A stretch of DNA of 64,000 nucleotides from a virus: positions 1 through 64,000 of IMG/VR virus record IMGVR_UViG_3300046011_004498, one strand, 5' to 3'. Positions within the stretch are counted from its first letter, which is position 1, and the number at the start of each line of letters is the position of its first letter. Under the pieces are notes generated by a model. That model searched no databases, was not told the DNA's origin, and worked only from the letters and a program-made list of their open reading frames with translations. This document shows positions 1 through 9,240 of the stretch, piece by piece. The translations under genes and the position numbers were made by a program.

Positions 1-32
1 AGACCACCGTTAGGTGGCGAGGGCCTCGGGTA

Positions 33-476
33 TTAACCGATGAACGACTTCTTCTGGCGGTTAGCCGGAGGAGTAGCCACGACATCATCCTTCTTGCGAT
101 AGATGGTGACGTAGAGCGGCAGGACACGGGTTTCACCCGGCTCCATCTTGGACAGAGCCTCCAGCTTCAAGTCCTCCAGGAACTCGTTCGATTCGGCCTG
201 CTTGTTGGCGAACTCGACAGTGCCGGCCTTACGGGTGTCCGGGTTCATGTTGTCCAGACCCGTCATCTGGGGCAGATTGACGAGGTCAGTGGCCGGGTTG
301 AAGTCTTCCGACTGCGGATCAACACCGTCACGCAGGGTGCCGATGTTCAGGTAGATGGTGGCACGATCACGAATCGGAACCACATTGTTGGCGCCATTGG
401 CTCCAACGTTAGCCAGAGCATTCATCGAAGCAGCGATGACAGCGGGATCGAAGGTCGAACGCGGGGTAGAGGACAT
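33..476 (-). CDS. N4 gp2/Drc-like ssDNA-binding activator of phage RNAP II
   Basis: YLNIG...VNLP..GLD..and MEPGE...LYVTIYR segments resemble N4 gp2 as recalled. ATG at 476 with GGAG SD, directly downstream of a hairpin promoter. Confidence 0.75.
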   Translation of the reverse strand: MSSTPRSTFDPAVIAASMNALANVGANGANNVVPIRDRATIYLNIGTLRDGVDPQSEDFNPATDLVNLPQMTGLDNMNPDTRKAGTVEFANKQAESNEFLEDLKLEALSKMEPGETRVLPLYVTIYRKKDDVVATPPANRQKKSFIG

Positions 477-510
477 GGTAGTCTCCAAAGTAAGATAAGG
501 GCAAAATCGC

Positions 511-530
511 CCAGACGACACGAAGTGTCG
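511..530 (-). promoter_or_regulatory. vRNAP hairpin promoter (drives the gp2-like gene), predicted +1 at 512
   Basis: Template (+) strand reads CC-AGAC-GACAC-GAA-GTGTC, the N4 geometry of +1 C, 4 nt, 5-bp stem and C-GNA-G triloop. Confidence 0.85.
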
Positions 531-852
531 CCTTTGAACAGAGAGTAGGGTCACTGTTCAGCCGAACAGAGTGCGTGACCTCATGATATTTGCGAATTTT
601 CCCACACCTCTGTGGACACAAACAGCGCATTAGTCATTCCTCACGGGTATGAGGCTGTCGCTTACAATGGTGAAGTATTCCCGCTTCACTAAGGCTTATC
701 GACTCTTTGGTATACACACTCTGCTCGGCTGAGCAGTGAAGGAAGCCTTGATGGACCGAAGCCCATCAAGGGTATCCTGCCTCGAACAGGATAAGATGCT
801 ACGTGCTGCCATTACAGCAGCTAGTTCATAACAACCTCCTGAGATATCACTC
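531..852 (-). ncRNA. Putative ~320-nt structured early ncRNA of unknown family
   Basis: At least 8 tandem hairpins whose G-U pairs form only on the minus strand, a C(UUCG)G tetraloop, its own vRNAP promoter and no convincing CDS. Confidence 0.65.
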
Positions 853-870
853 AATCGGCACGAAGTGCCG
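851..870 (-). promoter_or_regulatory. vRNAP hairpin promoter, predicted +1 at 852
   Basis: TC-AATC-GGCAC-GAA-GTGCC; the stem covaries with the other two copies (GGCAC/GTGCC vs GACAC/GTGTC). Confidence 0.8.
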
Positions 871-873
871 TAA

Positions 874-1080
874 TTAACGGTAAGTTCTGTGGTTCTTCCT
901 GATGTGTTGGAGCACAGCAGTACGAACACGAGCAGGAGAACCGTCCAGTTGAGCAATGAGACGCTCAACTTGAACTCGTTCAAAAGGCATCAGATCAGCC
1001 TTACGGTCGAGAACGAGAGGTTCAGCAACAGATGTTGCTCTCACCCCATAAGGTGAGTGGATGGTTTGAGCATGTGTCAT
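874..1080 (-). CDS. Early hypothetical protein
   Basis: ORF with AAGGA SD in the early operon. Confidence 0.65.
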   Translation of the reverse strand: MTHAQTIHSPYGVRATSVAEPLVLDRKADLMPFERVQVERLIAQLDGSPARVRTAVLQHIRKNHRTYR

Positions 1081-1187
1081 TGATTCAGTCCTTCTGGTTC
1101 AGGATTGATGGTTGGGTGGTGCTTCAGGGGAGACCAGTTCATCATAGCGCGTGCTAGAACTGTATCTCCCCCTTGGCATCGAGGCTG

Positions 1188-1397
1188 TTACCAGCCAGCG
1201 ATGAAGAAGGCTACGATCAGGATGATCAAGCCAATGATGCACTCACAGGCAGCGCCATAGCACTGTTCAGCGGTAGGTTGTCTCGATCTAACCCAATGGT
1301 AGAAGGGACGAATGACGAGAAACAGACCGATGGGCATCAGTATGAGGCCAATAATGAGCTTGGCCCATTCGATGATGGAGATGATGGTGACGAGCAT
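1188..1397 (-). CDS. Small early membrane protein (2 TM)
   Basis: Two hydrophobic segments, SD, operon context. Confidence 0.65.
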   Translation of the reverse strand: MLVTIISIIEWAKLIIGLILMPIGLFLVIRPFYHWVRSRQPTAEQCYGAACECIIGLIILIVAFFIAGW

Positions 1398-1402
1398 GGT
1401 GT

Positions 1403-1618
1403 TCAGTCCTTGCTGTGAAGCTCTTCTATGAGTTCACGAATGAGGGGTTTGAGATCGTCCACAGTCTCAGCCTCTTCGAGGCGTTGAAGTCTGATGGACA
1501 GTTGGTCTTGAGCTTGCTCTTGGGCCTGATGGTCACGCCAGTGGTCACCGCATAGGTGAAGAGTGCCACTGGCTACACAGGCGTGTTGAGAGCAGCGTTT
1601 GCACTTGATGAACCGCAT
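1403..1618 (-). CDS. Small early protein with possible Zn-binding motif (CxxC...C..H)
   Basis: CKRC..HAC...HLCGDH. Confidence 0.6.
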   Translation of the reverse strand: MRFIKCKRCSQHACVASGTLHLCGDHWRDHQAQEQAQDQLSIRLQRLEEAETVDDLKPLIRELIEELHSKD

Positions 1619-1621
1619 GGC

Positions 1622-1714
1622 TCAGCCAGTGATGATGTGGTGCCAGCCGATGAGCTGGAGACCGATGAAGGCGATCAGCAGAGCTGCTGTGTCGTACTTG
1701 TTCCAAGTCTTCAT
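1622..1714 (-). CDS. 30-aa membrane peptide (not in ORF track)
   Basis: MKTWNKYDTAALLIAFIGLQLIGWHHIITG; fills the gap between its neighbours. Confidence 0.5.
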   Translation of the reverse strand: MKTWNKYDTAALLIAFIGLQLIGWHHIITG

Positions 1715-1720
1715 GGTGGT

Positions 1721-2164
1721 TCAGACCTTGATGTTGAGGTGATTAATGGAGGCAGAGATGCAAGCTTCAAGCTCGGCATAGTCAGCTTGATAGATACTTT
1801 GACGCTTGAGATCGTCAGGATGAATCAGGTGAGGATCAGGAGTGTTGCACGCATCAATCATGCCCCAGAGTTCAGGCGTCATCCAAGGGATTGACGCTCT
1901 GTTCTCTTTACTTGGAACAGGAGTATCGAGGTCATCCTGAAAGGGATCGATGTCAGCAATGCTCTCATCTTGATGAATAAGTACATCGGCAACGTGTTCA
2001 AACGTGCTGATCACGATGACAGTGAGTACGACGAAGCCCATGAAGATCATGGCTGTACCAGAGATCGTGGGTGCCATGTTGGAGGTGGAAGATGCTCCGA
2101 TGAAGGCTACGCCTAGAGCAATGATGCAGATGCATACGATGATGCCGAGGGCACGAGAGAGCAT
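1721..2164 (-). CDS. Early membrane protein (2 N-terminal TM, acidic tail)
   Basis: ORF track; hydrophobic N-terminus. Confidence 0.65.
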   Translation of the reverse strand: MLSRALGIIVCICIIALGVAFIGASSTSNMAPTISGTAMIFMGFVVLTVIVISTFEHVADVLIHQDESIADIDPFQDDLDTPVPSKENRASIPWMTPELWGMIDACNTPDPHLIHPDDLKRQSIYQADYAELEACISASINHLNIKV

Positions 2165-2168
2165 GGGT

Positions 2169-2315
2169 CTATTTCCTTCTGAAGAGGGCAGAACGGCAGA
2201 ATGCCTGAACTGCGATGAAAATGTAGCCTACACAGGCAAGAGTGATGCCTGTTGCGAGGAATAGAGCGAATGGATTGTGGTGTGCTTCAGTGAAGCAAGC
2301 GATGATCAAGTCCAT
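2169..2315 (-). CDS. 48-aa membrane protein (not in ORF track)
   Basis: MDLIIACFTEAHHNPFALFLATGITLACVGYIFIAVQAFCRSALFRRK, GGAG SD. Confidence 0.55.
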   Translation of the reverse strand: MDLIIACFTEAHHNPFALFLATGITLACVGYIFIAVQAFCRSALFRRK

Positions 2316-2432
2316 AGTAGGCTCCAATGAACACGGATTGATGTTTTAAGGACAGATTAAGGGTGAGAGTAGGGTCTCACACTCTATCGGTTGTAGTCCT
2401 TGGCCCCCAGCCCGGAGGCTGAGGGCTTGAGG

Positions 2433-2708
2433 TCAGGTTGCGGTGGAATCCTCAGCGATGATGGCTTCGAGGAACTCCTTGTTGGAGTTGTAGAGCTGTA
2501 CTTGAGCAGGTGAGAGGCCTGCGTGCCACATGGAGTGGGCAGTTTGGGCATTGGTGAGCTTCTCGTTGTGCTCTTGCACACGGAGTTTGGAGGCAACGCC
2601 CAGTTGGAGCTTGATGTCAGCGAGCTTTGCTTTGTGTTTGAGCTCAGCGATGGCGACATTGTTGGTGATGCCAGTGGAGATGGCACGAGAGATGGTCATG
2701 AGAGCCAT
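2433..2708 (-). CDS. First early gene (positional equivalent of N4 gp1)
   Basis: First ORF after the outermost vRNAP promoter, AAGGA SD; sequence homology uncertain. Confidence 0.55.
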   Translation of the reverse strand: MALMTISRAISTGITNNVAIAELKHKAKLADIKLQLGVASKLRVQEHNEKLTNAQTAHSMWHAGLSPAQVQLYNSNKEFLEAIIAEDSTAT

Positions 2709-2737
2709 GGTGTGTGTCCTTGATCAAGGGATTAGTC

Positions 2738-2756
2738 CCAGTAGACACGAAGTGTC
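2738..2756 (-). promoter_or_regulatory. vRNAP hairpin promoter (outermost), predicted +1 at 2739
   Basis: CC-AGTA-GACAC-GAA-GTGTC on the template strand. Confidence 0.85.
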
Positions 2757-2937
2757 GTGGTAAATAGGTGGGGTGGTGTGTGTTATAGGTGTTATCATGT
2801 ATGGGGGGGTACATTTGTGTTATGGGTGTTATGTACCCATACCCCTAAACCAGAACATAACTATCAACTTTACCCTAATGTTTTCATATAATATGAAACT
2901 CTTTCCCCTTTCACCCCTATCTAAAATATAAAATATA
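2757..2937. other. Probable genome terminus / terminal repeat region
   Basis: Non-coding, upstream of the first early promoter; switches from GT-rich to AC-rich; inverted repeats GGGTACAT/ATGTACCC and TTTCATAT/ATATGAAA. Confidence 0.5.
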
Positions 2938-3273
2938 TTAATCCCATCTACCACTTTGACCGAACACTGTTCGCTGTACATACGCTGGGTTCTCAGTATC
3001 GAATTGCTCTACTCTACTGAAGTCTAAGACTTGGATGGTATTATCATCGTGTCTCTTCCATACTAATGCCCAAGATTCATCATCATTGGTTCCAGCTACA
3101 TCTACGCTGATGTTGTAGGGTGTAATGAAGTTAGTAGATACTAACTGTGAACCAGCACCATCACATTCATTGCATGTGATCTTGGATAAAAAGAGCATAT
3201 GGGTTTCTCCTCCCTCAGGAGTAATCATCCCTTTACCCTCACAGTTACTGCAAGTTACGGATACTATGCTCAT
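2938..3273 (-). CDS. DnaJ-type zinc-finger hypothetical protein
   Basis: CSNCEGKG and CNECDGAG (CxxCxGxG twice). Confidence 0.65.
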   Translation of the reverse strand: MSIVSVTCSNCEGKGMITPEGGETHMLFLSKITCNECDGAGSQLVSTNFITPYNISVDVAGTNDDESWALVWKRHDDNTIQVLDFSRVEQFDTENPAYVQRTVFGQSGRWD

Positions 3274-3274
3274 A

Positions 3275-3604
3275 TTAGCTCTCTTTATTAAGAGTGTTAT
3301 CGAGTGCTACTTCAACATCTTCGATAGACTGAAGAGTATCTCCAGCCCAGATTCCAATGCACTTGTAGAGGACAGTGGGTCTTGTCCTGCTAGTTGATGC
3401 AGGATCACGTATAGTAATGATTTCAAGATCATAATCCCTTAATTGTCTAATTATTCCCTTACGGTTTGTCTCCTTTAAACCAGGGAAGTTAATGGCTTCG
3501 CCTTGAACCAAGCGGTCATAATATCCCCTAAGTTTGCTACCTTCTCTAGGTTTGGACTGCTTAAGTTGATGGTTCCCTTTGATACTTCCTGCACTCAGAC
3601 GCAT
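3275..3604 (-). CDS. Basic hypothetical protein, possibly DNA-binding
   Basis: ORF in a tightly packed operon. Confidence 0.6.
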   Translation of the reverse strand: MRLSAGSIKGNHQLKQSKPREGSKLRGYYDRLVQGEAINFPGLKETNRKGIIRQLRDYDLEIITIRDPASTSRTRPTVLYKCIGIWAGDTLQSIEDVEVALDNTLNKES

Positions 3605-3792
3605 GGGGAGTCTTCATCAAAGTAGCTATCGAATGGTCCGCCTACGGCTTCTTCCCACTCATCATGTTCGTCTAAGTCTTTCATACGCTTGGTAAGCGCA
3701 GCCTTAAACATCTCAGGAGTTACATCCTCTCCTTTGGGATTATTGCTAAGTACGGAGAAAGCTACTGTGAATGCGTGGTTATATTGGCCCAT
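3595..3792 (-). CDS. Hypothetical protein
   Basis: ORF with GAGG SD inside a 12-bp stem. Confidence 0.65.
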   Translation of the reverse strand: MGQYNHAFTVAFSVLSNNPKGEDVTPEMFKAALTKRMKDLDEHDEWEEAVGGPFDSYFDEDSPCV

Positions 3793-3874
3793 AAGTTGCC
3801 TCGTCCCTTACTTAGTTGGTTGGGGGTTTATGTAATGTCCTGACGAGGCAACTGGGCTCTCGGTCACAGACCAT

Positions 3875-3926
3875 AAAAAGAGACCCCCTGCTTCAGTCCT
3901 TGTCGGGCTGAGCCTTGGGGGTCTCT
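3875..3926 (-). terminator. Extended terminator-like hairpin
   Basis: AGAGACCCCC/GGGGGUCUCU stem, inner GCUCAG/CUGAAGC helix, followed by a U tract. Confidence 0.6.
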
Positions 3927-4140
3927 CGTCCAGCCGCTAAGCTGGTTTGGACTGCTGCGGTTGACAGCTGGCTCGGCCTCGTCTCAGGCCAGAGCACCGT
4001 ATCATCCCCGGTGCCAAGGGCGCAGACCTTTTCGATGTCGCATGTCGTTGGGCTCTGTTTCAGTGCTTCACCCACTTGGCACACTAGACGTTCTCGTCTG
4101 TCAGTTAGACGGGGCCTTTATCAGGAACCACCTGATAATC
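3927..4140 (-). ncRNA. Putative multi-domain structured RNA
   Basis: Nested helices UGACAG/CUGUCA and GUGCCAAG/CUUGGCAC plus several hairpins; GC-rich; no credible CDS. Confidence 0.55.
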
Positions 4141-4148
4141 TTCCAAAC

Positions 4149-4207
4149 AAAAAGACCCCGACATAAACAGGGTAACACGTACTCCTGCTCCCTATGTCGG
4201 GGTCTTT
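4149..4207 (-). terminator. Extended terminator-like hairpin
   Basis: 15-bp AAAGACCCCGACAUA/UAUGUCGGGGUCUUU stem followed by U residues. Confidence 0.6.
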
Positions 4208-4298
4208 GCTCAATTGTAGGATACCAGTGAACGACTCACTTGGAACACTGTCTCCCCTACTTTCAATTGATGTCGGGCCAGTGAGGGCCACATCCAAT

Positions 4299-4330
4299 AA
4301 AAGAAACCCCAGTTTTCACTGGGGTTTCTT
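4299..4330 (-). terminator. Intrinsic terminator
   Basis: AAGAAACCCCAG/CUGGGGUUUCUU stem plus U tract. Confidence 0.7.
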
Positions 4331-4457
4331 CATAGAAGAGTATTGTTTTCGACAGATGGAGCTCAGATCGCATTGCTGAAGCCAGCCTTAGGCCAGTAGT
4401 CTTCGTATGCCGCTGTCATATATCCATAAGCTACTTAATAACTCTCTCTATTCAATA

Positions 4458-4533
4458 TGGTAGAAGAGATAGGACTTGAACCTATAACCTCCACGTTATG
4501 AGCGTGGGGCTCTAACCATTGAGCTACTCTTCT
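4458..4533 (-). tRNA. tRNA with CAU anticodon (Met elongator or Ile2)
   Basis: Cloverleaf: AGAAGAG acceptor, CCACG-CT-CAT-AA-CGTGG arm, TTCAA T-loop, encoded CCA. Confidence 0.92.
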
Positions 4534-4723
4534 ATAAAGAACTACAAAAGACGCCCCTTCCCGGAGTGCGTTTGAATGAAAACTCTTGTAGCTCTTCACT
4601 AAAGAGGCCCCAGACCTAAGCAGTTCTCAGCTAATGATCTAGGGCCTCTCGAAGGTTGGAGGGTCTTATTCTCCCGGCACCTTCCTGCCGATCCGAACTC
4701 CATGCAAGCATGGTGTCGAATAG

Positions 4724-4799
4724 TGGTGCTGTCTGTAGGGATCGAACCCACGACACCCAGTTTACAAAACTGGCGCTCTACCAACTGAGCTAAGACAGC
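4724..4799 (-). tRNA. tRNA-Thr(UGU)
   Basis: Cloverleaf, CCAGT-TT-TGT-AA-ACTGG arm, GTTCGA, CCA. Confidence 0.95.
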
Positions 4800-4804
4800 A
4801 ATAA

Positions 4805-4881
4805 TGGCGATCACATCAGGACTCGAACCTGAGACCCTCTGCTTAGAAGGCAGATGCTCTATCCAGCTGAGCTATGTGACC
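4805..4881 (-). tRNA. tRNA-Arg(UCU)
   Basis: Cloverleaf, TCTGC-CT-TCT-AA-GCAGA arm, GGTTCGAG, CCA. Confidence 0.95.
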
Positions 4882-4892
4882 AAATACAGAAG

Positions 4893-5011
4893 TGTTGGTT
4901 TAATGTTACTTGACGTTTCCCGCGTACACCCATCGGAAGAGCACAACGATTTGATCTAACTATCACAAGTTAGACAATAACATTACTTTGATTTCCTGCG
5001 TTAAACCAACA
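4893..5011 (-). ncRNA. Putative ~120-nt structured RNA between tRNA-Leu and tRNA-Arg
   Basis: Closing stem UGUUGGUUUAA/UUAAACCAACA, inner UAAUGUUA/UAACAUUA helix and two hairpins. Confidence 0.5.
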
Positions 5012-5045
5012 AATTGACAGGAGGAGGACTGGCTCTCCGATCTTT

Positions 5046-5131
5046 TGGTGCGAGCTAAGGGACTCGAACCCTTACACCATTACGATAACAGATTTTAAGT
5101 CTGGTGCGTCTACCAGTTCCGCCAAGCTCGC
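5046..5131 (-). tRNA. tRNA-Leu(UAA)
   Basis: Class II cloverleaf with long variable arm, CT-TAA-AA loop, CCA. Confidence 0.93.
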
Positions 5132-5266
5132 AATAGACTTTAATTCTTTGGAGGAGGGAACAGTCGCTCATTGCCCTACAACAGCGCCTGTTCCCTCAAC
5201 TCCTTATCCCCCCGCACACCCTCATAGAGTGCGAGGCGATTCTTCTGACCTATCTTTTTAGATTGG

Positions 5267-5566
5267 TCAATTAACTTTCGATCTCAAAGGCTTTCGATCT
5301 TCATCAGAATCTTCACCTTCTTCCTCCTCTTCAGGCTGAGACGGAACGACCGGGTCCAAGTCGGAGGGCGAAGCCCGTAGACGCTGGACCAAAGGGAGTT
5401 TCGGCCAGCCGGGATAACCATTGAACCAAAGTACGTTCTTCTTCCTGAACCAATGACGGTGTGTTGCTTGGGTCTGACCTGAATTCACGGTGGCTGGAAC
5501 CAACCGGGAAAAAGGAATCAACGATAAAGTCAACGCTGTTACGAAAACACCGACATCTTTGAGCAT
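5267..5566 (-). CDS. Hypothetical protein with N-terminal hydrophobic segment and acidic tail
   Basis: ORF with GGAG SD. Confidence 0.55.
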   Translation of the reverse strand: MLKDVGVFVTALTLSLIPFSRLVPATVNSGQTQATHRHWFRKKNVLWFNGYPGWPKLPLVQRLRASPSDLDPVVPSQPEEEEEGEDSDEDRKPLRSKVN

Positions 5567-5789
5567 GAGCTCTCTCCGTTATTGGAGACTGATTGTTGAT
5601 ACAGCTTGTCTTTCTTGTCTAGCACAAACTTCAATCATAGTTATATATAGTATAGACACACAAGACACACTTCCCCCGTTTCTCTTCTCTAGTAAATTAG
5701 AGAGAGTGGCCCTCGTCACATCCTGTGGACACGCGCCTTAAACAGACCTAGAGACCAAAGGGCAAGCCAAAAAAAGGAGCACCTTGCAA

Positions 5790-6056
5790 ATGTCTGATGA
5801 AGAACACGCTGGCCTTCCCGTCGCAGGATATCGCCCTCAGGGTGATGTCTACATTCGCACCGTTAACGCCAATAAAATTACCGAGGAAAAAATCCTCAGA
5901 ACAATCGACGATCTGCGAAATGAGAAAGCCCCTGATGGTGGTCTGATCCGCGTTGACCAGAGATGGCTGTCGATTGCCACGACCCAACTGGAACAGGGCT
6001 TCATGGCTCTGAACCGGGCAATCTTCCAACCGACAAGGCTTGAGGGAGAGCTCTAA
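5790..6056 (+). CDS. acb2: Acb2-like anti-CBASS cyclic-nucleotide sponge
   Basis: GYR near the N-terminus and RWLSIATTQLEQGFMALNRAIFQP at the C-terminus match the Acb2 pattern as recalled (GYR...[24 protein letters not shown]); ~90 aa; AAGGAG SD. Confidence 0.8.
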   Translation: MSDEEHAGLPVAGYRPQGDVYIRTVNANKITEEKILRTIDDLRNEKAPDGGLIRVDQRWLSIATTQLEQGFMALNRAIFQPTRLEGEL

Positions 6057-6232
6057 AAACAAAGGAGGCGGGGAGTAACAGGGATGACCAGTCCCTTCTC
6101 CCCGCCTCAGCGTGTTCTCGTCCGGGAACCCAAGACCAGACGAACAGCGGCCCAACCATCTCACAGGCAGACAAGTCTTGTATGGCGGTCACTACTCTTA
6201 GATTCAAATACAAATAGAAGAGGTTGCCTCCA

Positions 6233-6922
6233 GTGGCTCTCACACACACAGAAGTCGTTAGTGCATTACCTGCTCACTTAAAGACAGCAGTTACTCCAGC
6301 ATTCGTAGATAAGTTAAACAACATTGTTGCTGACCAACATGTTGCTGAAGAGTTTGAAAGAAACTTCATTACTTATTCTAAAGTTCTTACTGGAGGTAAG
6401 TATAAGACAGGTGATTACTTAAACGCTGTCGCTTACGTAACTTATAAACTCTTGGGACATTCTAACCAAGATGCCTATAAGTATGCCTTTCCTGACAGAT
6501 ATCGTGACATGGTTGCGGCAGGTAAGGATGCAAAGCAGATTAGCTCCTTTGTAGCTGCATACCATAAAGGTCAGCTTGTTACCGCTATTCTGGAACAATC
6601 TATTGTTCCTGCGTGGGTACTACATCAAGGTAAGTTTCACGAAGCTATTGGTGTTCTGGCTGAAGTAGCTTTAGACCCTACAGCTCTAAACAAAGATCGT
6701 GTGGCTGCTGCTGATAGCCTTGCAAAACATCTGACAGCTCCTGTTGCTAAAGAAGTTAATCTGAACATAGGTGTTCAAGAATCTTCTGGCATGATTGAGA
6801 TGAAGCAAATGATGGCAGAGATGGCGCGTCAGCAGAAAGAAATGATTCAGAATGGTGCTGATGTTAAGACTATTGCCGAACAAGGTCTTATCATTGACGC
6901 AACTGCGACTGAGAAACCCTAA
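6233..6922 (+). CDS. Putative terminase small subunit (N4 gp69-like)
   Basis: Immediately upstream of TerL; DYLNAVAYVTYKL motif typical of N4 gp69 homologues; GTG start likely. Confidence 0.75.
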   Translation: MALTHTEVVSALPAHLKTAVTPAFVDKLNNIVADQHVAEEFERNFITYSKVLTGGKYKTGDYLNAVAYVTYKLLGHSNQDAYKYAFPDRYRDMVAAGKDAKQISSFVAAYHKGQLVTAILEQSIVPAWVLHQGKFHEAIGVLAEVALDPTALNKDRVAAADSLAKHLTAPVAKEVNLNIGVQESSGMIEMKQMMAEMARQQKEMIQNGADVKTIAEQGLIIDATATEKP

Positions 6923-8547
6923 TGACCAATCCCATTGTTGACCAGATTAAACAGGAACTTCAGAAGAAGACACTCGATGAGTGGCTTGATGAAGTAGATT
7001 ATAGTGACTTTGACAACTACGTACCGTCAGAGTTTGCATTAATGTATCTACAGTTTATCAAACTGGTTAACGGGAAAGAGGGCGAGCAAAATAAAACCCC
7101 GGTCATCCATCTTAAGATGCTCGACAAATTGGTCTCGGGAAATAGACGCATCGCAAATCTGTGCTTCCGGGGTGCAGCTAAGACCACCCTATTCTTCGAG
7201 TATCTCACCTTATTCATCGCAGTAATGGGTGGTATCCCCGGCTTCGGTGATATTACAGGCATGATCTATGTGTCTGACTCAATGGATAACGGTGTTAAGT
7301 CGGCACGTAAGAACATTGAGTACCGATACTGGAACAGTGAGTTCTTACAGCATTGGCTCCCTTCTGAGGGTGTTAAGTTCACAGATGCGTACATTGAGTT
7401 CCTCTCTAAAGGAGGACATAGACTCGGTGTTAAGATGTTTGGTGCAAAGACGGGTATTCGTGGTACAAAGATTTTCGGAAAGCGTCCGACACTTGCTGTA
7501 CTTGATGACTTAGTGTCAGATGACGATGCTAAGTCTAAGGCTTCCATGAATGCAATTAAGGATACCGTCTACAAAGGTATCGACTATGCCCTTGATCCAC
7601 GTAAACGTATGATCGTGTTCAATGGAACACCCTTCAACTTAGAAGACATTCTTATTGAAGCGGTTCAGTCTGGTGCATGGGACGTAAACGTTTGGCCTGT
7701 ATGCGAACGATTCCCTTGTGAACGTCATGAGTTTGTAGGAGCGTGGGAAGATCGCTTCAGTTTTGACTTCGTTAAAGATCAATACGAGATGTCTGTTCTC
7801 ACTGGAAAGGTAGAAGCCTTCCAACAAGAACTCATGCTTCGTATTTCATCTGAAGAAAACAGATTAGTTCAGGATCATGAACTGCTTTGGTATTCTAGAA
7901 ATGAACTGTTAGCTCGTAAAGCTAACTATAACTTCTACATAACTACCGACTTCGCTACCTCTGATAAGCAATCAGCGGATGACAGTGTCATTTCCGTATG
8001 GGCTTATAACGCTACAGGTAACTGGTTCTGGGTAGACGGAATTGCAGCAAGACAAACAATGGATAAAACCATTGATGCTTTGTTCCGCTTTGTCCGTATT
8101 TATAAGCCACAGTCTGTAGGTATTGAGGTTACAGGTCAGCAAGGCGGGTTCATCCAATGGATTCAAGCTGAAATGTTGAGACAGGATACCTTCTTCAACC
8201 TTGCTTCTTCAGAGAAGAGTGGAGCTCCGGGTATTCGACCAATGCAAAACAAGCTCACCAGATTCAATATGGTGGTGCCTTGGTTCAAGACTCAGAGGAT
8301 GTGGTTCCCTCAAGAGCTTAAGACGGGTCATGTTATGGTTGGTAAAATGATGACCCAGATCAGACTTGCTACATCTAATGGTCTGAAGGGTAAGGATGAC
8401 ATCATTGATACCATCTCAATGTTGGCTTTCCTGAAGCCCTATGCACCATCAGCAGATTACAGTAAGAACCACAACGAAAGTGGAGGCGGTATCTTCCATC
8501 CAGAAGAGGAAGAGATCGAGTATCTTCCTATTAGCCGATACGTCTAA
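6922..8547 (+). CDS. terL: Terminase large subunit (N4 gp68-like)
   Basis: FRGAAKTT Walker A, AVLDD Walker B, GTP coupling motif, TTDFA and DDIID nuclease motifs. Confidence 0.95.
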   Translation: MTNPIVDQIKQELQKKTLDEWLDEVDYSDFDNYVPSEFALMYLQFIKLVNGKEGEQNKTPVIHLKMLDKLVSGNRRIANLCFRGAAKTTLFFEYLTLFIAVMGGIPGFGDITGMIYVSDSMDNGVKSARKNIEYRYWNSEFLQHWLPSEGVKFTDAYIEFLSKGGHRLGVKMFGAKTGIRGTKIFGKRPTLAVLDDLVSDDDAKSKASMNAIKDTVYKGIDYALDPRKRMIVFNGTPFNLEDILIEAVQSGAWDVNVWPVCERFPCERHEFVGAWEDRFSFDFVKDQYEMSVLTGKVEAFQQELMLRISSEENRLVQDHELLWYSRNELLARKANYNFYITTDFATSDKQSADDSVISVWAYNATGNWFWVDGIAARQTMDKTIDALFRFVRIYKPQSVGIEVTGQQGGFIQWIQAEMLRQDTFFNLASSEKSGAPGIRPMQNKLTRFNMVVPWFKTQRMWFPQELKTGHVMVGKMMTQIRLATSNGLKGKDDIIDTISMLAFLKPYAPSADYSKNHNESGGGIFHPEEEEIEYLPISRYV

Positions 8548-8556
8548 GGTCCGATC

Positions 8557-9240
8557 ATGCAAATTAGCTTAGATACTCTCCTGAAGTCTCTGTCTTATGA
8601 GACACTGTCCTTCATGGCTGAAAGCAATCATGCCAACGGTACAATTGCACCTGATCAAGTTCCGAAGGTAGTTGGTCGGATTAACGCTGTACTTCGTCGT
8701 ATGGCTGTTAAATTTGTTCTCAAAGAGAAAACTATTAAGGTGAATGTCACGAATGACATTCGATACTATCCCTTAACAGTTGGCGCTGCATGGATCATGT
8801 CTGATCCTGATGAGCCATTTACAGGTGATGTTGGTCGTATTCTTGGGATAGAAACCCCAACAGGTCGTATGCATGATCTAGGCGACAAAGCTTCTCTTAA
8901 GAGTATCCTCTTACGAGATGATGGTAAGTCATTTGCCATAGACAGTACGTTACCTGCTGGTGTCTATTCGGTTATCTATAAAGCAGCTACGCCTCAGTTT
9001 ATCCCAGATGTTAGCAAACTTGATCAGCAATTAGAAATTCCTGAATCTTTATTAAATGCTTTATATCTTGGTGTCGCTGCAATTACCTATGAAGGTATTG
9101 GAGGTGCTGAGAATCTAGCTATGGCTAGAGATAAGTGGAACCAATATGAAAAAGAATGCATCGAAGCTAAAATCAACTCTGGTGTTGAAGTTGAGGAAAG
9201 CGACGACGGAAACAAGTTTGTTGACCGTGGCTTCTTCTAA
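8557..9240 (+). CDS. Head-tail adaptor (N4 gp67-like)
   Basis: Synteny after TerL; C-terminal FVDRGFF typical of the family. Confidence 0.7.
   Translation: MQISLDTLLKSLSYETLSFMAESNHANGTIAPDQVPKVVGRINAVLRRMAVKFVLKEKTIKVNVTNDIRYYPLTVGAAWIMSDPDEPFTGDVGRILGIETPTGRMHDLGDKASLKSILLRDDGKSFAIDSTLPAGVYSVIYKAATPQFIPDVSKLDQQLEIPESLLNALYLGVAAITYEGIGGAENLAMARDKWNQYEKECIEAKINSGVEVEESDDGNKFVDRGFF

Follow-up and report, generated by a model that had tools for sequence, protein, structure and literature searches.

A putative mixed mRNA, tRNA and small-RNA operon in a freshwater N4-like phage

The usual view of phage tRNA clusters is that they supply codons or counter nucleases, and the spacers between their genes are ignored. 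A 64,000-nucleotide (nt) stretch of viral DNA, hereafter the window (positions 1-64,000 of IMG/VR record IMGVR_UViG_3300046011_004498, which has 72,847 nt and is 99% complete), holds an RNA island at 3860-5270 in which the spacers between four tRNA genes are long and several of them are kept by compensatory change across phages with different flanking genes. The question raised by this locus is what these stretches are: plain spacers, punctuation marks of a transcript, or small RNAs in their own right. An earlier sequence-only reading had described an RNA operon of tRNAs interleaved with unannotated structured RNAs, and proposed that tRNA processing might release a cassette of small hairpin RNAs acting as decoys or sponges. 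We could confirm its observation in part and support its interpretation in part. Along its minus strand, the non-coding island alternates between tRNAs and structured RNA, and several of the structures are retained in related phages by compensatory change. With about even confidence, we read the region as a mixed mRNA, tRNA and small-RNA operon on the minus strand, closed by tandem terminators. The lake-water (freshwater) virus that carries it is an N4-like phage (Schitoviridae).

tRNA genes, folds and terminator-like hairpins

ARAGORN and Rfam, the latter at its gathering score, agree on four tRNA genes on the minus strand: tRNA-Leu (TAA, 5046-5131), tRNA-Arg (TCT, 4805-4881), tRNA-Thr (TGT, 4724-4799) and tRNA-Met (CAT, 4458-4533), the last with its CCA encoded. 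Their matches to the tRNA model RF00005 reach 57.6-72.9 bits against a gathering score of 29. The Rfam covariance scan, which the sequence-only reading had suggested as a check, matched the tRNA family only. Throughout the 64-kilobase (kb) window, every other Rfam family stays below its gathering score, and in a permissive scan of 3400-5700 (E ≤ 10) nothing outside the tRNAs reaches the gathering score of its family, several of the weak matches falling on the terminator-like hairpins described below. GOLLD and ROOL, large structured non-coding RNAs that tend to adjoin phage tRNA genes, had been brought in as a likeness; neither family appears in 3400-5700 up to E = 10 or at gathering score in the window, and the modules found here are, unlike them, small (35-160 nt) and match no Rfam family.

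The eight self-contained folds that had been claimed were computed as minus-strand RNA and compared with 200 dinucleotide shuffles. Five of them beat the shuffled sequences (z -3.4 to -5.7), namely 5150-5203 (z -5.7), 4603-4649 (z -4.9), 4149-4296 (z -4.0) and 3875-4140 (z -3.4), each with 0 of 200 shuffles as stable, and 4537-4596 (z -4.2), with a single shuffle as stable. The remaining three do not (z -0.4 to -1.5): 14 of 200 shuffles were as stable as 4893-5011 (z -1.5), 26 as stable as 4651-4720 (z -1.2) and 61 as stable as 4331-4452 (z -0.4). Because the ends of these folds had been picked to complete stems, we repeated the test on segments set by the tRNA ends and by the terminator reading. 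The spacer from the 99-amino-acid (aa) open reading frame (ORF) upstream to tRNA-Leu (5132-5270) gave z -7.6 and the Thr-to-Met spacer (4534-4723) z -5.6; the values were z -2.35 for 3927-4149, z -1.6 for 4651-4723, z -0.7 for the Leu-to-Arg spacer (4882-5045), z -0.6 for 4208-4297 and z -0.25 for 4331-4457. The statement that almost every base outside the tRNAs belongs to a fold is thus an overstatement, because 454 of the 1,092 non-tRNA bases belong to segments whose folding does not surpass that of shuffled sequence.

Other details of the description stand. Basal stems, given as 10-15 base pairs (bp), measure 10-16 bp, and the stems at 4537-4596 and 4603-4649 are indeed completed on the minus strand by G-U pairs, two in each. 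The hairpin at 4603-4649 (hairpin C) folds with -29.0 kcal/mol on the minus strand versus -20.0 kcal/mol on the plus strand, and that at 4537-4596 (hairpin D) with -22.0 versus -13.3 kcal/mol; two further hairpins, HB and H0, are equally stable on both strands. When the whole window was scanned on both strands in segments of 60 nt, five of the 45 strongest distinct hairpin loci fell in this 2.2% of the sequence, and three of those five we read as terminators.

These three, T1, T2 and T3, appear to be terminator-like hairpins that had been overlooked. T1 (4296-4328, minus strand) consists of a hairpin at 4303-4328 with a 10-bp GC-rich stem and a 6-nt loop, followed by UUUUAUU; the 60-nt window 4291-4350 around it reaches -25.0 kcal/mol, a genome-wide z of -4.0. 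T2 (4143-4207, minus strand) has a hairpin at 4151-4207, built from a 16-pair outer stem and an apical stem and followed by a U-rich tail, and is the third strongest 60-nt hairpin of the window. T3 (3873-3926, minus strand) is a hairpin at 3879-3926 with a 10-bp stem followed by UUUUUAU, and it has a counterpart in the related contig L003. The U runs adjoin T1-T3 on the minus strand only. Of the three, a consensus terminator scanner lists only T2, by its inner hairpin with the T run; the stem of T1 can probably extend into the U run, which would explain its omission. The three leftmost folds that had been offered as unannotated structured RNAs would therefore largely be a tandem of terminator-like hairpins; we read three of the strong folds as being, or containing, hairpins of this kind and not novel RNAs.

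Conserved modules in related phages

Two IMG/VR contigs from uncultured phages, L003 and L139, encode a gp69-like protein 72% identical to that of the window and carry counterparts of the island. Read 5' to 3' on the minus strand, the window has ORF99 (the 99-aa ORF), hairpins H0, HA and HB, tRNA-Leu, element X, tRNA-Arg, tRNA-Thr, unit S, hairpin D, tRNA-Met, T1, T2, domain D and T3. The order in L139 is ORF105, HA, an extra hairpin, HB, X, about 290 nt, tRNA-Arg, 100 nt, tRNA-Thr, S, tRNA-Met, a 72-aa ORF (no remnant of which is found in the window's genome), a terminator-like hairpin, domain D, about 190 nt and another terminator-like hairpin. L003 has a PhoH-like gene, H0, HA, HB, X, tRNA-Arg, a YrlA-like element, and S with its final hairpin and seven U. 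Neither relative has a tRNA-Leu at the position of the window's, whereas the tRNA-Arg is 94.7% identical to the L003 copy.

The clearest case of compensatory change is HA (5206-5240, minus strand; 15 pairs, z -3.7). The copies of the three phages align without gaps, and 41 of 45 cells (91.1%) remain paired, even though both sides have changed in 9 of the 15 pairs, a number reached by 0 of 500 shuffles and compared with 0-2 in slid controls. Read on the plus strand, the same alignment has 34 of 45 cells paired (75.6%), and this lower value assigns the structure to the RNA of the minus strand. Invariant in the three phages are five positions of the loop (AUGAG) and the G with which the 3' arm begins. 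On one side of HA lies H0 (5246-5269, minus strand), which starts at the stop codon of the 99-aa ORF, with 9 of 10 pairs, an AAAA loop and z -4.3; a similar hairpin is present in the L003 fold. On the other side lies HB (5150-5203, minus strand), the claimed fold with the lowest z-score, with roughly 20 pairs and the conserved core GGCGCU...AGCGAC. When 73 sources (629 kb) were searched with a covariance model of HB (R1), it matched only the window, L003 and L139, and no HB-like element was found in the 70 other loci. A gapped pattern derived from HB hits at least 119 viral contigs; among the loci retrieved, only the relatives by the gp69 gene, L001-L005, match window 1-9000 by blastn.

Element X (4893-5011, minus strand) is a 119-nt stretch closed by an 11-bp Watson-Crick helix. 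Its own stability is not unusual (z -1.5), and its interior is neither notably stable nor clearly conserved. The closing helix, however, recurs with 11 bp at the same position in L003 (1605-1739) and L139 (1514-1622), where its sequences are unrelated across the three phages, all pairs being Watson-Crick in the window and L003 and one being G-U in L139. A helix of this length and span was found in 3 of 300 random genome windows of 165 nt, in 11 of 300 of 265 nt and in 18 of 300 of 420 nt.

Unit S (4600-4723, minus strand) resembles a small RNA. It comprises a variable 5' hairpin, a hairpin with a GGAAGG loop (4675-4690), a linker of about 25 nt that contains CCUUCG in the window, and hairpin C (4603-4649) followed by UUU. 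This four-part layout is common to the window, L139 (799-964) and L003 (1090-1200), with the GGAAGG loop identical in all three; the last hairpin is strong and GC-rich and is followed by three, four or seven U, the seven in L003. Hairpin C is kept in L139 with 12 pairs, against 14 in the window, and the sequence of its upper stem differs there. The helices of S were compared by hand, because the MAFFT alignments were off and RNAalifold drew a poor consensus from them. L003 keeps S although no tRNA comes after it.

Hairpin D (4537-4596, minus strand; z -4.2), a 14-bp stem with its two G-U pairs, stands 3 nt before tRNA-Met and is missing in L139, where hairpin C directly precedes tRNA-Met. At 4534-4599 it opens with nearly the bases of tRNA-Met, has 14-nt inverted ends and has no second copy in the genome, and it resembles a small palindrome inserted exactly where tRNA-Met begins.

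Domain D (3995-4150, minus strand) is a conserved non-coding domain between T2 and T3. Its core (4054-4113) is 82% identical to L139 287-346 over 60 nt, with flanks that cannot be aligned, and RNAalifold on the window/L139 pair predicted 20 pairs, 6 of them changed on both sides. The absence of a credible coding sequence from the island was borne out: none of eight ORFs (35-89 aa, both strands) gave a Pfam or PHROG match at E ≤ 0.1. We nevertheless asked how probable it is that parts of the island encode micro-proteins, either from a 63-aa ORF (3893-4084) overlapping domain D or from the AUG in the HA loop, and consider this the least credible explanation of all. In its favour, the 63-aa ORF and a 20-codon ORF of L139 share their start region and, by our own reading, differ in length by a multiple of three, and AUG-AGG is conserved in the HA loop. 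Yet the 63-aa ORF extends into the T3 hairpin and has no homologue in a large protein search; the differences between the window and L139 in the shared part are paired changes of a hairpin stem and not third-position changes, and of its five differences from a closely related strain only one falls on a third codon position (our own count). The AUG of the HA loop has no Shine-Dalgarno-like sequence ahead of it.

This strain is about 97% identical to the window and is represented by a 55-kb contig found in three runs (X4, X5, X7). No differences are listed at 4534-4722, about 3% of positions differ at 3797-4533 and five differences fall within 4888-5800; this uneven distribution looks like a recombination mosaic and not like local constraint. 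Set against the folds, the differences support the structures weakly. In the stems of domain D, C-to-U changes at 4011 and 3992 turn G-C into G-U pairs and one further change lies in a loop; in T2, one change keeps its pair and two lie in loops. In the same strain, 77 nt around tRNA-Arg (window 4811-4887) are replaced by about 234 nt. Because L003 and L139 differ there too, the tRNA-Arg site looks like a hot spot for the gain and loss of tRNA-like modules.

Few close relatives came to light. Exact patterns from tRNA-Arg, the intergenic block, the core of domain D and S match only L003, L139 and the contigs L132 and L133, and the patterns of the domain D core and S have no match in prokaryote genomes. 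A metagenome scan returned one near-identical contig of 1 kb and one distant contig, and a genome-contig scan with the gp69-like protein had no match. With the whole region as a blastn query against GenBank phages, the matches listed cover the tRNAs only, and four tRNA-free segments have no match in 50,697 GenBank phage records.

Punctuation, small RNAs or decoys

The tRNAs, the stability of five folds, the strand and the conservation with compensatory change are shown by the sequences; the transcript, its ends and cleavages, and the stability and any trans action of its modules we infer, as follows. Transcription of the minus strand might start in the divergent intergenic region at 5567-5789, blocks of which are kept in an alignment with L003 and which is the presumed promoter region of the unit, and run through the 99-aa ORF (5267-5566, minus strand) into the RNA modules, giving a single polycistronic RNA or a small number of them. 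The four tRNAs would be freed by RNase P of the host and by trimming of their 3' ends. The stretches between them would be modules under selection (H0/HA/HB, X, S and domain D), not plain spacers. HA, HB and X could act in cis as processing or stabilising structures that set the mRNA apart from the tRNA portion and cap the ends left by cleavage, and hairpin C could serve as a leaky terminator or attenuator before tRNA-Met. S, and probably domain D, would be released as small stable RNAs through tRNA processing and termination, and the three terminator-like hairpins in tandem would close the unit.

Several observations weigh against such an operon of selected modules. The comparison set consists of three phages and the one ~97%-identical strain, too few for a formal covariation test, and the two compensatory pairs of HB between the window and L139 are not significant alone (reached by 104 of 500 shuffles). 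Among the listed sequencing runs that contain 3600-5800, none is recorded as RNA. Three stretches, namely the inside of X, the 127 nt that follow tRNA-Met and the 90 nt separating T1 from T2, are no more stable than shuffled sequence and have no match in L139 or L003. Domain D (as 3927-4149) is slightly more stable on the plus strand (z -3.2 versus -2.35). T1 and T3 are absent from the output of the terminator scanner and are our own reading; a strain difference at 3919 breaks a stem pair of T3, and another at 4182 breaks an apical pair of T2. The promoter was not identified: a sigma-70 scan of 3000-6500 gave two weak matches compared with a mean of 3.5 in shuffled sequence. One weak match lies in 5567-5789 (5621-5592, 9/12), and no sigma-70-like promoter was found in 3840-4470.

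In an alternative reading, all the hairpins would act purely in cis on the ORF mRNA and the tRNA precursors, serving as terminators or attenuators, as sites for RNase III or RNase E, or as 3'-end protectors, the excised pieces being degraded by-products that are inactive in trans. We regard this as a possible explanation, though a clearly less probable one than the mixed operon. The strongest folds include three that are terminator-like; the H0/HA/HB group and hairpins C and D are located exactly at gene boundaries; hairpin C aligns with the L003 hairpin that carries seven U; and L139 does without hairpin D. Other N4-like phages, however, have tRNA clusters with short spacers. Among 51 further N4-like contigs scanned, seven have tRNA genes flanking the gp69-like gene (L139, L154, L157, L166, L174, L176 and L189), with as many as 20 tRNA genes near it in L174, and their spacers are mostly 1-20 nt long: 4-8 nt in L154, 3-4 nt in L176 and 19 nt in L157, compared with 164-190 nt in the window. 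Spacers of 3-19 nt imply that long spacers are not required for tRNA maturation. Moreover, the invariant loops (AUGAG in HA, GGAAGG in S) and the 82%-identical core of domain D, in both its single-stranded and hairpin parts, exceed the needs of a stem-only signal, and S is kept in L003 without a tRNA downstream.

If S and domain D accumulate as RNAs, as the mixed operon would have it, could they or other released modules bind host factors in trans, for counter-defence or host takeover from one locus with acb2? Decoys for tRNA-cutting nucleases, GGA-loop sponges of RNA-binding regulators, and partners of Ro/Rsr by tRNA mimicry would be examples. We consider this improbable. An Acb2-like gene lies 220 nt upstream on the opposite strand, S has its invariant GGAAGG loop, and in E. 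coli a tRNA spacer reportedly acts as a sponge of small RNAs (the 3'ETS-leuZ work). Sponge RNAs of the Csr/Rsm type display many GGA motifs in hairpin loops; S has four GGA triplets in the window (127 nt), six in L139 and three in L003, about the chance level by our own count, and only one conserved hairpin loop of S carries GGA. As to mimicry of CRISPR repeats, no repeat family rises above noise; the only match, CRISPR-DR47, scores 19.7 bits against a gathering score of 39 (E = 2) and lies inside the 99-aa ORF.

The tRNA-mimicking YrlA/Y RNA-like RNAs are reported in excerpts of PMC4201824 from 254 bacterial species and 22 phages. In L003, the stretch right after tRNA-Arg (1276-1377, minus strand) has a T-arm, a D-arm and a 9-bp closing stem, and it matches the YrlA model over its full length with 38.2 bits (E 1.2e-6), below the gathering score of 69. 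On this 5.5-kb contig, the element may be a phage tRNA mimic with no Ro gene nearby. Sub-threshold YrlA matches also occur in 13 of 14 control genomes, and the window has no such element: its own match to YrlA (RF02553), with 21.9 bits against the gathering score of 69 over model positions 27-81, is the junction of two real tRNAs, tRNA-Arg and tRNA-Thr. In known cases, YrlA and a Ro60/TROVE gene are no more than 4 kb apart, whereas this phage has no such gene, the 72.8-kb record giving no match to TROVE (Ro60/Rsr) at E ≤ 1. Our analysis neither excludes nor supports a role of the modules as decoys or sponges; the acb2 neighbour and the YrlA-like mimic of L003 point towards such a role, though neither is a test of it. 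In L139, the place of the YrlA-like element is taken by the 100-nt Arg-Thr spacer (1041-1140, minus strand), in which we read a T-arm-like hairpin and a 6-bp closing stem and where Rfam has nothing at E ≤ 1.

Carried further, this line of thought would give a freshwater clade of N4-like phages a modular RNA cassette beside acb2, with five or more conserved structured RNAs (HA, HB, X, S and domain D) threaded between tRNAs and a Y-RNA-like tRNA mimic in a sister phage. Set free by the enzymes of tRNA processing, these RNAs would act in trans by capturing host RNA-binding proteins or defence nucleases. We give it little credence; if true, the cassette would be an RNA counterpart of the protein sponge encoded beside it. 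The nearest known mechanism for the sponge idea would be the tRNA spacer sponges of E. coli (3'ETS-leuZ and internal spacers), which are pieces cut from a polycistronic tRNA precursor, end in the operon terminator and act in trans on small RNAs; these are bacterial, whereas the island belongs to a phage.

Among phages, the nearest parallels are RNAC and RNAD of T4, which excerpts of PMC3014915 and PMC9697503 describe as coming from the tRNA region, with their role unknown. Like the modules of the island, which lie among the tRNAs and on their strand, these small non-coding RNAs belong to a phage tRNA cluster, but no sequence or Rfam relation was found, the phage here is an N4-like podovirus and T4 a myovirus, and the island has at least five modules, known from sequence alone. 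The N4-like Pseudomonas phage LUZ7 has, according to excerpts of PMC9163698, an sRNA1-3 hotspot with RNAs below 250 nt in a non-coding stretch between orf69 and orf70, where two small RNAs have a common start but end at different terminators, and one seems to undergo processing. Both cases concern an N4-like phage and a non-coding stretch, and the terminator-like hairpins of the island likewise stand in tandem; the hotspot is not described in those excerpts as tRNA-linked, and the likeness is one of description. A limited full-text literature search found no description of modules such as those of the island in N4-like phages. Should S and domain D accumulate as RNAs, they would add to the few phage small RNAs of unknown role, such as those of T4 and LUZ7, and would give five defined motifs in a locus with an anti-CBASS gene. 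Should the modules be processing signals only, they would show how an N4-like phage punctuates a mixed mRNA-tRNA transcript.

Right after T3 lies an inverted repeat, GGUCUGUGACC (3862-3872, minus strand), with a stem of 4-6 bp and a 3-nt loop. It is unique in this genome and is kept after the last terminator in all three phages (L003 1081-1108, L139 38-65), where the downstream genes differ, and it could be a promoter hairpin or an end-related signal. Might the hairpins as a whole be elements of the DNA, for instance promoters recognised by RNA polymerases of the N4 type, or signals near the genome end for packaging or replication? The promoters of N4-type virion polymerases are DNA hairpins. 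Initiation by RNAPII of LUZ7 also appears to be hairpin-directed, as stated in excerpts of PMC9163698. Furthermore, the island adjoins the terminase genes, and HB and H0 do not prefer a strand. A role at the DNA level is nonetheless very unlikely, because HA and hairpins C and D need G-U pairs, which are mismatched on the other strand and in DNA. The stems of the island have 10-16 bp and loops of 4-28 nt, whereas the candidate promoter hairpins elsewhere in the record have 6-bp stems and a TTC loop, none of the three lying in the island, and the U runs after T1-T3 are confined to the minus strand.

The phage genome and neighbouring genes

N4-like phages are marked by a giant virion RNA polymerase, a genome of ~70-75 kb, an N4-type terminase and gp69-like genes. 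Here the 3545-aa ORF is the virion RNA polymerase (phrog_2206, 1739 bits), the record has 72,847 nt, and a gp69-like or small-terminase gene lies at 6224-6922, followed by the large terminase at 6922-8547 (phrog_38). The gp69-like gene is matched by 465 phage records; among the matches listed, which are N4-like phages, the amino-acid identity reaches 50%. The record carries the same 126 bases at both ends (window 4-129 and record 72722-72847). Although labelled linear, it therefore represents an assembly that is closed or terminally redundant, and the block of minus-strand genes continues across the record start.

The island lies in a variable arm of the genome, beside the terminase genes and an acb2-like gene. 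The latter (5790-6056, plus strand) is divergent from the RNA operon. It is listed as an ORF from TTG 5784, but ATG 5790, with AAGGAG about 10 nt upstream, is the likelier start. The ORF at 5784-6056 matches the Pfam family PF24729 ('Acb2/Tad1 hairpin domain') along all 58 profile positions, with 56.5 bits (cut-off 27; E 3.2e-15), which confirms the divergent acb2 neighbour named by the sequence-only reading, and it also matches phrog_717 (E 5.6e-15). By these profile matches, its predicted product is Acb2-like, of the anti-CBASS sponge family. A 138-aa minus-strand ORF opposite acb2 (5748-6164) has no relatives in a homologue search, and we read it as the antisense shadow of acb2.

The 99-aa ORF upstream of the RNA modules has no Pfam or PHROG match; its counterpart in L139 is 61% identical over 36 aa (BLASTP, E 4e-13). 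In place of this ~100-aa ORF of the window and L139, L003 has the PhoH-like gene (1885-2586, minus strand; PF02562, E 7.8e-38), and the H0/HA/HB module still stands directly behind it. In the annotated N4-like phages Zuri and JWAlpha, the same arm consists of small genes running to the terminal repeat, and in Ea9-2 and Tellus no RNA gene is annotated in the corresponding arm. We infer that this lineage acquired the tRNA island as an accessory insertion.

Two minor observations concern the minus strand elsewhere in the record. A 111-aa ORF (2938-3273, minus strand) has a weak match to the DnaJ-type CXXCXGXG zinc finger, with 25.1 bits, under the cut-off of 32.7. Three minus-strand hairpins, at window 855-870 and 515-530 and at record 67962-67977, have a 6-bp stem starting with CG and a TTC loop; they are candidate promoters of the N4-type virion RNA polymerase and would mark the start of the early region.

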